DNA of 64,000 nt from Nannocystis sp. RBIL2. GTDB lineage: Bacteria > Myxococcota_A > Polyangia > Nannocystales > Nannocystaceae. Shown one piece after another: positions 44,301 to 45,521 of this stretch; positions within the stretch are counted from its first letter, which is position 1, and every line of letters starts with the position of its first letter. A model generated the notes under the pieces. That model did not search any database and was not told the DNA's origin. It saw nothing but the letters and a program-made list of their open reading frames with translations. The stretch lies in assembly GCF_026626745.1 (NCBI RefSeq), contig NZ_JAPNJW010000002.1, forward strand, positions 1,318,151 to 1,382,150, given 5' to 3'. A program made the position numbers and the translations under genes.

Positions 44301-45521
44301 TCACACCGGCGGCGCGCAGTCCCTAGCGATCTGCGCCACTGCCTGAGCCCGCGGCAGCACCTGCTGCTCGTCGCGGATCCGCAGCGTCAGCGCCTCGCTG
44401 CTCGCCTCGCGCGCCCCGATCACCGCGAGCATCGGCACCCCTTGCGCGTGCGCCTCTGCCACGCGGCGGGCCAGCGTCTCGCGGCGGTCGTCGAGCTCGA
44501 CCCGGATCCCCGCCGCGCGCAGCTCGGCCTCTGCCGCCTCTGCCGCCGCTTGCTGGGCCGGGGCGACCGGCGCCACCACCACCTGCACGGGAGCCAGCCA
44601 GGCCGGCAGCGCGCCTGCGTGGTGCTCGAGCACGATCGCCAGGAAGCGCTCGAGGCTGCCGTAGATCGCCCGGTGTAGCATCGCAGGGCGGCGGCGCTGA
44701 CCGGCCTCGTCGATGTAATGCAGCCCGAAGCGCTCCGGCAGGTTGAAGTCGAGCTGGATCGTCCCGCACTGCCACGAGCGGCCCAGGCGGTCGCGCAGCG
44801 AGAACTCGAGCTTCGGCCCGTAGAACGCCCCCTCGCCCGGCTGCACCACGTAATCCAGCCCGGCCTCGCGGGCCGCCGCGGCCAGCTGGGCCTCCGCGCG
44901 GTCCCACAGCGCATCGTCGCCGACTCGCTCCGGCGGGCGCGTCGACAGCCCGACCGCGAAGTCCTCGAACCCGAAGCCCGCGTAGAACCTGCGCGCGCCC
45001 TGGCAGAAGCGCACGATCTCGGCCGCGATCTGGTCCTCCGCGCAGAACACGTGGCCGTCGTCCTGCGTGAACTGGCGCAGGCGGAACAGCCCGTGCAGCG
45101 TCCCGCTCGGCTCGTCGCGGTGGCACAGGCCGAACTCGCACAGGCGCAGCGGCAGGTCGCGGTACGACAGCGCGCTGCGCTGCGCGATCTGGATGTGGCC
45201 CGGGCAGCTCACCGGCTTCAGCGCCGCCCCGCAGCCCTCGTCGGCGACTGCGAACATTCCCTGGCGGAAGTGCTGCCAGTGGCCGCTCTTCTCCCAGATC
45301 GGCTGTCGCAACAATTGCGGCGTGCGGACCTCGTGATAGCCGTCGGCGCTGGCGCGGCGGCGGGCCGCGTCTTCAAGCGCGCGGGCGAGGACCAGGCCGC
45401 GGGGGTGCCAGAACACCATCGCCGGCGCCTCTTCCTGCAAGTGGAACAGGCCGAGGCGAGGGCCGAGGGCGCGGTGGTCGTGGGCGTCGAGGACGGAATG
45501 GGGGCTGATGTCGTGGCTCAT
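44301..45521 (-). CDS. Truncated threonyl-tRNA synthetase paralogue: class II catalytic core plus anticodon-binding domain, lacking the N1/N2 (TGS/editing) domains
   Basis: ThrRS-specific blocks DHRALGPRLGLFHLQEEAPAMVFWHP, LKPVSCPGH (zinc Cys), RLRQFTQDDGHVF (motif 2, zinc His), HRAIYGSLERF (zinc His) and the anticodon-binding LAPVQVVVAPV...GVPMLAVIG. Confidence 0.85.
   Translation of the reverse strand: MSHDISPHSVLDAHDHRALGPRLGLFHLQEEAPAMVFWHPRGLVLARALEDAARRRASADGYHEVRTPQLLRQPIWEKSGHWQHFRQGMFAVADEGCGAALKPVSCPGHIQIAQRSALSYRDLPLRLCEFGLCHRDEPSGTLHGLFRLRQFTQDDGHVFCAEDQIAAEIVRFCQGARRFYAGFGFEDFAVGLSTRPPERVGDDALWDRAEAQLAAAAREAGLDYVVQPGEGAFYGPKLEFSLRDRLGRSWQCGTIQLDFNLPERFGLHYIDEAGQRRRPAMLHRAIYGSLERFLAIVLEHHAGALPAWLAPVQVVVAPVAPAQQAAAEAAEAELRAAGIRVELDDRRETLARRVAEAHAQGVPMLAVIGAREASSEALTLRIRDEQQVLPRAQAVAQIARDCAPPV

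Follow-up and report, generated by a model that had tools for sequence, protein, structure and literature searches.

What is the role of a threonyl-tRNA synthetase (ThrRS) gene that encodes no editing domain? The question is raised by a gene, here called thrS-short, in a 64,000-nucleotide stretch of the genome of Nannocystis sp. RBIL2 (contig NZ_JAPNJW010000002.1, positions 1,318,151 to 1,382,150; G+C content 73%), which was analysed as a whole, is referred to as the window and provides all coordinates given below. An initial annotation described the gene as a truncated ThrRS with intact zinc ligands and interpreted it as a self-resistance determinant or biosynthetic enzyme of a cryptic gene cluster. 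The present analysis points to a different role: thrS-short probably encodes a conditionally expressed auxiliary ThrRS, which would charge tRNAThr without proofreading and would be switched on by a ribosome-mediated attenuator sensing Thr-tRNAThr.

The truncated synthetase and its active site

The gene itself is described by a single feature.

44301 to 45521, minus strand: thrS-short, a ThrRS of 406 amino acids composed of the class II core and the anticodon-binding domain only, with 7 threonines

The Pfam scan identified tRNA-synt_2b (PF00587) at residues 97-301 (E=6e-45) and the C-terminal anticodon-binding domain HGTP_anticodon (PF03129) at residues 313-398 (E=3e-17). Neither TGS (PF02824) nor the editing domain tRNA_SAD (PF07973) had a Pfam match in thrS-short, while both are detected in the full-length relatives. 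The NCBIfam model TIGR00418 (thrS; EC 6.1.1.3) was matched with 460 bits against a cut-off of 384, with only positions 170-548 of the 565 profile positions aligned. Upstream of the start codon the frame stays open for only 35 codons, and these correspond to the leader and terminator region described below. By tblastn with three full-length N-terminal domains as queries, no TGS or editing coding sequence was found in the 64 kb; the separate editing-domain gene nearby, which the initial annotation had considered as the sign of a split housekeeping enzyme, was likewise found neither in the window nor in the flanks of 26 family loci.

Alignment to residues 242-642 of E. coli ThrRS (PDB 1evk/4hwo) is gap-free (E=1e-120, about 50% identity), so that residue q of the window protein corresponds to E. 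coli residue q+228. The zinc triad is intact (C106=C334, H157=H385, H283=H511), and the ATP and threonine ligands R135=R363, D155=D383, Y234=Y462, K237=K465 and R292=R520, together with Q153 and Q256 (E. coli Gln381 and Gln484), match the E. coli enzyme; all of these residues, zinc ligands included, are invariant in an alignment of 33 family members. The roles of Asp383, Gln381, Tyr462 and Gln484 in threonine binding have been described (PMC9880928). The truncation, the zinc ligands and the intact motif 2 noted by the initial annotation are thus all borne out. By its class II core with motifs 2 and 3, zinc triad and anticodon-binding domain thrS-short is a ThrRS, which would be expected to aminoacylate and, judged from its domain content, probably does not edit in vivo.

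The short enzymes also share seven substitutions, V104, F146, L148, F265, R352, A357 and H358 (E. coli positions 332, 374, 376, 493, 580, 585 and 586), which at least 90% of short ThrRSs carry and which are practically never found in 68 full-length relatives. Three of them lie in or next to motif 2 and the amino-acid pocket and three in the anticodon-binding domain. M332V is found in 100% of the short family and in 0% of the full-length relatives.

Threonine depletion of the short ThrRS family

The window protein contains 7 threonines in 406 residues (1.7%), all encoded by ACG, compared to a mean of 4.6% and a lowest value of 2.4% in 19 other open reading frames (ORFs) of the window. Across the 24 family loci studied in detail (see below) the number of threonines per protein ranges from 1 to 17, with a single one in loci L095, L097 and L098 and three in Myxococcus xanthus. 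The short family has a mean threonine content of 1.49% (n=166), as opposed to 3.59% in 126 full-length relatives over the corresponding region, where the minimum is 2.0% and the high-GC subset reaches 3.73%. The extreme is P0248, from a Myxococcaceae metagenome-assembled genome (MAG), with zero threonines in 413 residues; here the conserved FTQDD has become FMQDD and GTIQ has become SSVQ, and the locus carries a threonine-rich leader MASPCATTTCTTPHPGPRTAA*. P0182 has one threonine and P0251 two. Enzymes that have to be produced while their cognate amino acid is lacking are known to contain little of it (PMC4209129), and the loss of the N-terminal module of about 240 residues fits the same economy.

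A threonine-codon leader upstream of thrS

Between the putative promoter and thrS-short lies a small ORF rich in threonine codons.

45738 to 45743, minus strand: -35-like box TTGACC of the leader promoter, read from the sequence
45715 to 45720, minus strand: -10-like hexamer TATCCC, 17 nt after the -35 box, with the leader ATG 7 nt further on
45633 to 45707, minus strand: leader ORF MLRRATTATTTTTLPGGVGRVRVR*, 24 codons and a stop
45669 to 45692, minus strand: threonine-codon run (region 1), seven threonines in eight codons (ACC five times, ACT twice), the proposed stalling site

An equivalent leader ORF is present in each of the 24 truncated-thrS loci whose upstream sequence is long enough, namely 8 contigs from genomes, 12 from metagenomes, 3 obtained via protein look-ups, and the window. 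It has 20-28 codons, 5-8 of them consecutive threonine codons, and its stop lies 85-170 nt upstream of thrS. The same scan for threonine runs matched 6 of 116 full-length thrS loci against 24 of 24 short ones (Fisher p=9e-22). In leader alignments the A and C of the threonine codons are invariant and the third base varies, so the leader ORF carries a coding signature and is probably translated. In 17 of the 24 loci an exact TTGAC is found 35-41 nt ahead of the start codon of the leader. Given this distance, transcription is expected to begin at or beside that codon, and the mRNA would then have little or no 5' untranslated region (a leaderless start). The -10-like hexamer TATCCC was not called by a simple consensus promoter scan. 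Rfam gave nothing at gathering score, Thr_leader included, in the window or in 7 related loci; the sub-threshold matches were weak and terminator-like, the best being the Pseudomonas sRNA P9 (E=0.11).

In the window the leader (45692-45669) uses only ACC and ACT for threonine and the thrS coding sequence only ACG (7/7), a tendency also seen in L002, L082 and L085. As a general rule such an isoacceptor split was dropped, since it fails across the family; in some lineages it may reflect isoacceptor-specific sensing.

A different conserved upstream ORF (uORF), MTPRTTT..., was observed in about 20 of 117 full-length thrS loci, in most of them ending about 55-150 nt before thrS. These loci (among them L027, L038, L039, L041, L054, L060, L063, L075, L078, L079, L125, L129, L135, L144 and L160) are mostly from Burkholderiales, namely Rubrivivax, Roseateles, Aquincola, Massilia and Herbaspirillum, and match no Rfam family. 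The MTPRTTT... uORF looks like a separate threonine-sensing leader for housekeeping thrS.

Alternative RNA structures between the leader and thrS

Together with the threonine codons (region 1), five further segments of the leader RNA can pair in mutually exclusive ways.

45636 to 45665, minus strand: region 2, GGGUGGGGUCGGUCGCGUGCGCGUGCGC, distal part of the leader ORF, which pairs with region 1 or with region 3 (antiterminator)
45578 to 45610, minus strand: terminator-like hairpin of regions 3 and 4, GCGAAGCCCCGCC-CGAGCC-GGCGGGGCUUUUGC, with UUUU at 45580-45583 at the end of the 3' arm
45548 to 45562, minus strand: region 5, conserved motif GCUCCGUCCGGCCGG, able to pair with the 3' arm of the terminator and also, as an anti-SD, with the Shine-Dalgarno (SD) region of thrS
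45531 to 45534, minus strand: region 6, SD sequence GGAG, 9 nt before the thrS ATG and buried with the AUG in a hairpin at 45575-45516

In the window the predicted folds are 1:2 between the threonine codons and the distal leader ORF (-38.0 kcal/mol, z=-3.2), the antiterminator 2:3 spanning 45665-45595 (-39.7 kcal/mol, z=-3.7), the terminator 3:4 (-23.4 kcal/mol, z=-3.6), 4:5 between the terminator 3' arm and the downstream motif GCUCCGUCCGG (-24.2 kcal/mol, z=-1.8), and 5:6 between GCUCCGUCCGG and the thrS SD and AUG (-28.0 kcal/mol, z=-2.3). In each of the loci a GC hairpin of about -17 to -31 kcal/mol is located after the leader stop, and a GGAG-type SD is found at the equivalent place in other loci. 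The region 5 motif is conserved at the nucleotide level though it is out of frame with thrS, and it covaries with its partners: CCGGACGGGG/CUCCGUCCGG in Sorangium becomes CCGGUGGGG/CUCCACUCGG in L094, and CGAAACGG/CCGUUUCG form a matching pair in L088 and L093. An E. coli-type operator mimicking the tRNAThr anticodon arm was considered for the motif GCUCCGUCC and rejected, the motif behaving as a covarying anti-SD; repression of thrS in E. coli needs the ThrRS N-terminal domain, which is not part of thrS-short.

The pairings were compared between segments of the same locus (cognate) and of other loci, using 23 loci and permutation p-values. The cognate advantage was clearest for 3:4 (-22.2 vs -15.4 kcal/mol, p=0.0002) and 5:6 (-15.7 vs -13.1 kcal/mol, p=0.0002), followed by 2:3 (p=0.0006), 4:5 (p=0.001) and 1:2 (p=0.008). 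Mononucleotide-shuffle z-scores for 4:5 were not significant (mean -0.1), GC-rich shuffles pairing too easily. In constrained folds with the threonine codons masked, the Sorangium and Byssovorax leaders (L001, L003) flip from 3:4 to 2:3 plus 4:5. Termination and antitermination at this leader are predicted events.

Distribution of the family

The protein search returned at least 120 relatives, almost all of 392-426 residues and with identities from 96% to 60%; those with a name all belong to the Myxococcota. When the search was seeded with the copy of Myxococcus qinghaiensis, the short form was found in M. xanthus, M. fulvus, M. stipitatus, Pyxidicoccus and Corallococcus, and also in Archangium, Melittangium, Hyalangium, Stigmatella and Sorangium. 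Identities to the M. qinghaiensis copy track taxonomy, descending through 98-83%, 86-84%, about 80%, about 76% and about 68% to about 64%, and since they fall in step with taxonomy the family appears to be vertically inherited across the phylum. In the literature searched, no paper dealt with the short ThrRS of myxobacteria, with its threonine depletion or with the leader.

Locus L007 lies on a 10.8 kb contig of a Steroidobacteraceae MAG, binned as gammaproteobacterial, and encodes a short ThrRS with a typical threonine leader MKFVRISTTTTTRTGGRVAVDV*. Its placement is due to horizontal transfer or mis-binning, and its threonine content of 4.2% is the highest of the 24 loci. An exhaustive search of cluster representatives yielded more N-terminally truncated ThrRS clusters at 40-54% identity (P0176, P0182, P0200, P0224, P0248, P0251 and P0259; loci L171-L173). 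Among these, P0176 has a normal threonine content, is without a clear threonine leader and lies among small unannotated ORFs, and P0224 begins at the DHR motif yet has 815 amino acids, about 400 residues beyond the ThrRS match.

Proposed function of thrS-short

The threonine-codon sensor, the minimal, threonine-poor but intact product and the conserved stand-alone organisation suggest a synthetase made when, and only when, Thr-tRNAThr is limiting. In the proposed mechanism transcription from a sigma-70-type promoter would begin directly at the first codon of the 24-codon leader ORF or close beside it. With plentiful Thr-tRNAThr the ribosome would reach the leader stop and cover region 2, so that the terminator 3:4 would form; in transcripts that read through, region 5 would pair with the thrS SD and AUG (5:6), and the gene would be off at the level of both transcription and translation. 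When Thr-tRNAThr is scarce the ribosome would stall on the threonine codons and the antiterminator 2:3 would form; region 4, set free, would capture region 5 and the thrS ribosome-binding site would be exposed. The product, purged of threonine and without the TGS and editing module of about 240 residues, could still be made at limiting Thr-tRNAThr and would restore charging capacity. Making more synthetase normally needs the scarce aminoacyl-tRNA itself, a shortage which the short ThrRS family appears to solve by sensing threonine codons, dropping 240 dispensable residues and removing threonine from the rest.

Several observations weigh against this proposal. An auxiliary role presupposes a full-length housekeeping thrS elsewhere in the genome, which we infer, and no full-length ThrRS of Myxococcota was identified in the cluster-representative search, the cluster look-ups or three contig look-ups; in M. 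xanthus a canonical thrS is presumably located next to infC. A threonine-rich uORF is not diagnostic of an auxiliary gene, considering the MTPRTTT... form carried by about 20 of 117 full-length, presumably housekeeping thrS genes. Lysine, asparagine, isoleucine and tyrosine are also low in the short family, a GC-content effect expected at 70% G+C, and so the composition argument depends on threonine not being disfavoured by GC content; threonine is the only strongly depleted residue without AT-rich codons. As to the RNA, the cognate advantage of 1:2, 2:3 and 4:5 is small (1.6-1.8 kcal/mol), and RNAalifold on a MAFFT alignment of 22 leaders, in which the hairpin arms were misaligned, gave no consensus structure, the per-locus folds and the cognate/non-cognate duplex comparison being used in its place. 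The window leader keeps the terminator in equilibrium folds when the ribosome site is masked; since this terminator is too stable to flip at equilibrium, switching in the window would have to be kinetic. Finally, only roughly every second hairpin has a U tail (the window has UUUU), which makes true termination uncertain, and in species whose hairpins are without a U tail the layer of SD sequestration may for this reason carry much of the regulation.

Without an editing domain the enzyme should release Ser-tRNAThr, unless full-length subunits edit in trans. A more far-reaching proposal can also be made, which we regard as speculative and rather doubtful: a programmed fidelity switch of myxobacteria, by which a threonine-free and editing-free enzyme would replace or supplement the proofreading ThrRS when Thr-tRNAThr runs out, Ser-tRNAThr being tolerated or exploited (regulated threonine-to-serine mistranslation) during the starvation that triggers development, with the six mutually exclusive RNA segments acting as a two-level attenuator. 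If true, translation could restart without needing threonine to build the enzyme.

Three features not previously combined would be joined here: an editing module lost in nature, a protein almost cleared of its cognate amino acid, and a leader-peptide switch that seems to act on termination as well as on ribosome binding. If this is confirmed, the short family would provide the first defined regulatory logic for a natural bacterial ThrRS devoid of the editing domain, a clear case of avoidance of the cognate amino acid in a synthetase and, as M. xanthus carries the gene, a tractable test of lower translational fidelity under starvation. There is a practical aspect as well: databases label these genes just as threonine--tRNA ligase, and genome mining guided by self-resistance will therefore flag false positives in myxobacteria.

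Alternative explanations

A first alternative overlaps with the proposed auxiliary ThrRS and differs only in the selective agent. A natural product, from competitors or from the own cell, would block the housekeeping enzyme, Thr-tRNAThr would fall, the leader would stall and a drug-insensitive backup enzyme would be induced, as in the case of the indolmycin-resistant TrpRS1 of Streptomyces coelicolor. The regulatory logic fits this equally well, and resistant duplicate synthetases are a known class (PMC9437257). The family-specific substitutions M332V, M374F, V376L and L493F are located within or close to the active site; the human counterpart of M332 is M411, one of 18 residues contacting borrelidin, and M332 moves for obafluorin (PMC4389257, PMC9880928). 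At the two experimentally defined positions of borrelidin resistance, however, the short enzymes are wild type, H309=H81 being invariant in 33 sequences and L489=L261 present in 91% of the family (PMC4389257, PMC9880928), none of the four substitutions of the self-resistant S. parvulus enzyme is mirrored (PMC4389257), and the obafluorin-reactive Tyr462 is kept (PMC9880928). Moreover, resistance requires neither so extreme a depletion of threonine nor the absence of the editing domain, both of which are expected for a shortage of the amino acid or the charged tRNA. Taken together we consider an inhibitor as the selective agent unlikely.

It is also conceivable, with quite a low probability, that thrS-short is the sole ThrRS of the cell and works without cis-editing, fidelity being ensured by a trans-editing factor or by discrimination in the active site and the leader giving homeostatic feedback as in E. 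coli pheST. The phylum-wide, vertically inherited distribution resembles that of a core gene, housekeeping thrS genes of Burkholderiales also have threonine-rich uORFs, and editing-free ThrRSs such as MST1 of yeast mitochondria and the catalytic subunit of Crenarchaeota (PDB 3ugq, 3a31) do serve as sole enzymes. A constitutive enzyme would, however, hardly explain a purging of threonine down to zero when full-length relatives keep 3.6%; the predicted strong terminator and sequestered ribosome-binding site imply low basal expression, and the failure to find an editing-domain gene in the window or around the 26 loci speaks in the same direction, as does the canonical thrS presumed to lie next to infC in M. 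xanthus.

The role assigned by the initial annotation, a self-resistance or biosynthetic aminoacyl-transfer enzyme of a cryptic cluster with the O-methyltransferase, the M16 peptidase pair and the flavin adenine dinucleotide (FAD) monooxygenase, is hardly tenable in view of the gene neighbourhood described in the following, and the retained anticodon-binding domain and the leader sensing Thr-tRNAThr point to translation instead.

Genomic neighbourhood

The gene order is FAD monooxygenase, divergent from thrS-short, followed on the strand of thrS by a small ORF, the O-methyltransferase and two M16 peptidase genes. This is the order proposed initially, on which the cluster interpretation was built, except that the gap between thrS and the monooxygenase measures about 840 bp and not 740. 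The O-methyltransferase, the M16 pair and the FAD monooxygenase accompany thrS only in L081, a metagenomic relative at 96% identity; relatives sharing 79% and 73% identity do not have them, nor do eight genome loci, and in all 25 other loci are without these genes. In M. xanthus the neighbours of the short thrS are an OPT transporter, a CBS-domain protein, MsrB and purL. The Pfam survey of the 64-kb window showed kinases, hydrolases, a VWA protein, an MMPL transporter and others, and no core genes of the polyketide synthase (PKS), non-ribosomal peptide synthetase (NRPS) or ribosomally synthesised and post-translationally modified peptide (RiPP) type, nor were such core genes found in the flanks of 23 family loci. 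In the family loci elsewhere the largest flanking ORFs are Ser/Thr kinases and purL.

Downstream, thrS and the methyltransferase are separated by 850 bp that vary between strains; compared with L081, conservation is limited to the 240 bp adjoining the methyltransferase.

44262 to 44300, minus strand: GC-rich hairpin directly after the thrS stop, putative 3' end of a monocistronic transcript

This hairpin (-27.4 kcal/mol, z=-2.9) is without a U tail, and the DNA beyond it is not conserved in L081. The variable spacer and the hairpin after the stop codon indicate that thrS is a stand-alone unit, with its own predicted promoter, leader and 3' hairpin. A cluster-specific immunity gene is in addition a poor fit for a family vertically inherited across the Myxococcota. 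The suggestion of a cryptic biosynthetic or resistance locus thus finds no support, in view of unconserved neighbours, absent PKS, NRPS and RiPP core genes, vertical inheritance and a predicted separate transcription unit. Of the likeness to resistance-type duplicates something remains, as both its regulation and its composition agree with an auxiliary synthetase expressed under certain conditions, and such duplicates belong to this general class; it is the membership in a cluster that fails.

Between positions 43700 and 44300, several hundred bases are inserted, deleted or replaced relative to L081. Within this strain-variable segment lies the 168-codon ORF 43773-44279 (minus strand), without a Pfam match. 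The small hypothetical protein reported in the same-strand run therefore exists as an ORF, though its segment is missing from the 96%-identical relative.

The intergenic region between thrS and the monooxygenase had been described as repeat-rich, which is correct in that it holds five copies of an 18-nt motif, GACMTGTCYCTTCGRCCA; the repeat is, however, a genome-wide dispersed element. In the 64-kb window 15 copies are found on both strands, against 0.03 expected: the five at 45847-46275, which make up the repeat-rich part, and others at 739, 6519, 16507, 23176, 26724, 34123, 34634, 56677, 58595 and 61371, some of the copies appearing within ORFs. As it is shared only by L081, GACMTGTCYCTTCGRCCA seems to be a lineage-specific dispersed repeat or binding site outside the conserved thrS unit.

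Elsewhere in the window, 30753-33350 (minus strand) encodes an 865-amino acid protein with the shoulder domain of the major vault protein (MVP), a vault repeat and SPFH/Band 7 domains, an unusual bacterial MVP-like gene, which is adjoined by a radical SAM enzyme (29264-30592, minus strand). No tRNA genes were found in the 64 kb.

Comparison with known systems

The closest structural counterpart is the E. coli delta-N ThrRS 242-642 (1evk, 4hwo), which has the same domain content and boundaries: the natural short ThrRS starts 5-14 residues before the DHR motif, where the E. coli construct starts. This engineered enzyme aminoacylates tRNAThr, and Ser-tRNAThr is not cleared. The E. coli protein is a laboratory truncation, whereas the short ThrRS is a natural, conserved gene with its own regulation, purged of threonine and carrying M332V.

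With respect to regulation, B. subtilis thrZ is a second ThrRS, full-length, which is induced at low Thr-tRNAThr charging by a T-box riboswitch, and Streptomyces coelicolor trpRS1 is an auxiliary TrpRS under leader-peptide attenuation. Both are, like the short thrS, silent second synthetase genes induced by a sensor of the charging of their own tRNA, but thrZ differs in its T-box and full-length product, and neither has been reported as truncated or depleted of the cognate residue. trpRS1 uses a leader peptide like the short thrS but is tied to antibiotic resistance, TrpRS1 being an indolmycin-resistant duplicate (PMC9437257). A cluster self-resistance synthetase of the BorO/ObaO type is disfavoured for thrS-short, there being no conserved co-localisation with core biosynthetic genes.

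Anabaena ThrRS T2 is a stress-induced second ThrRS with impaired editing, which makes Ser-tRNAThr; subunits of the accurate enzyme T1 have been proposed to edit in trans via T1/T2 heterodimers (PMC4787780). In distinction to the short ThrRS, T2 retains its full length, though its editing domain is degenerate; zinc deficiency and not a shortage of Thr-tRNA induces it, and it is without a leader peptide. The crenarchaeal split ThrRS (ThrRS-cat and ThrRS-ed) and yeast MST1 are also catalytic ThrRSs without an editing domain in the polypeptide. The short ThrRS is of the bacterial type (E=1e-120 to E. coli vs 2e-52 to Aeropyrum), and an archaeal-type split enzyme was rejected on these values and on the editing-domain gene not found in the window or flanks.

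Leader peptides precede several synthetase genes in S. lividans (thrL-thrS, leuL-leuS, trpL-trpS and alaL-alaS), with leaderless starts and terminators without U runs (PMC8079986). These, and pheM-pheST of E. coli, share with the short thrS a short ORF enriched in cognate codons upstream of the synthetase gene. The thrL of S. lividans has only two threonine codons and stands before a normal thrS; the leader of the short thrS has 5-8 consecutive threonine codons and, in addition, a conserved anti-SD element, and the gene that follows it is truncated.

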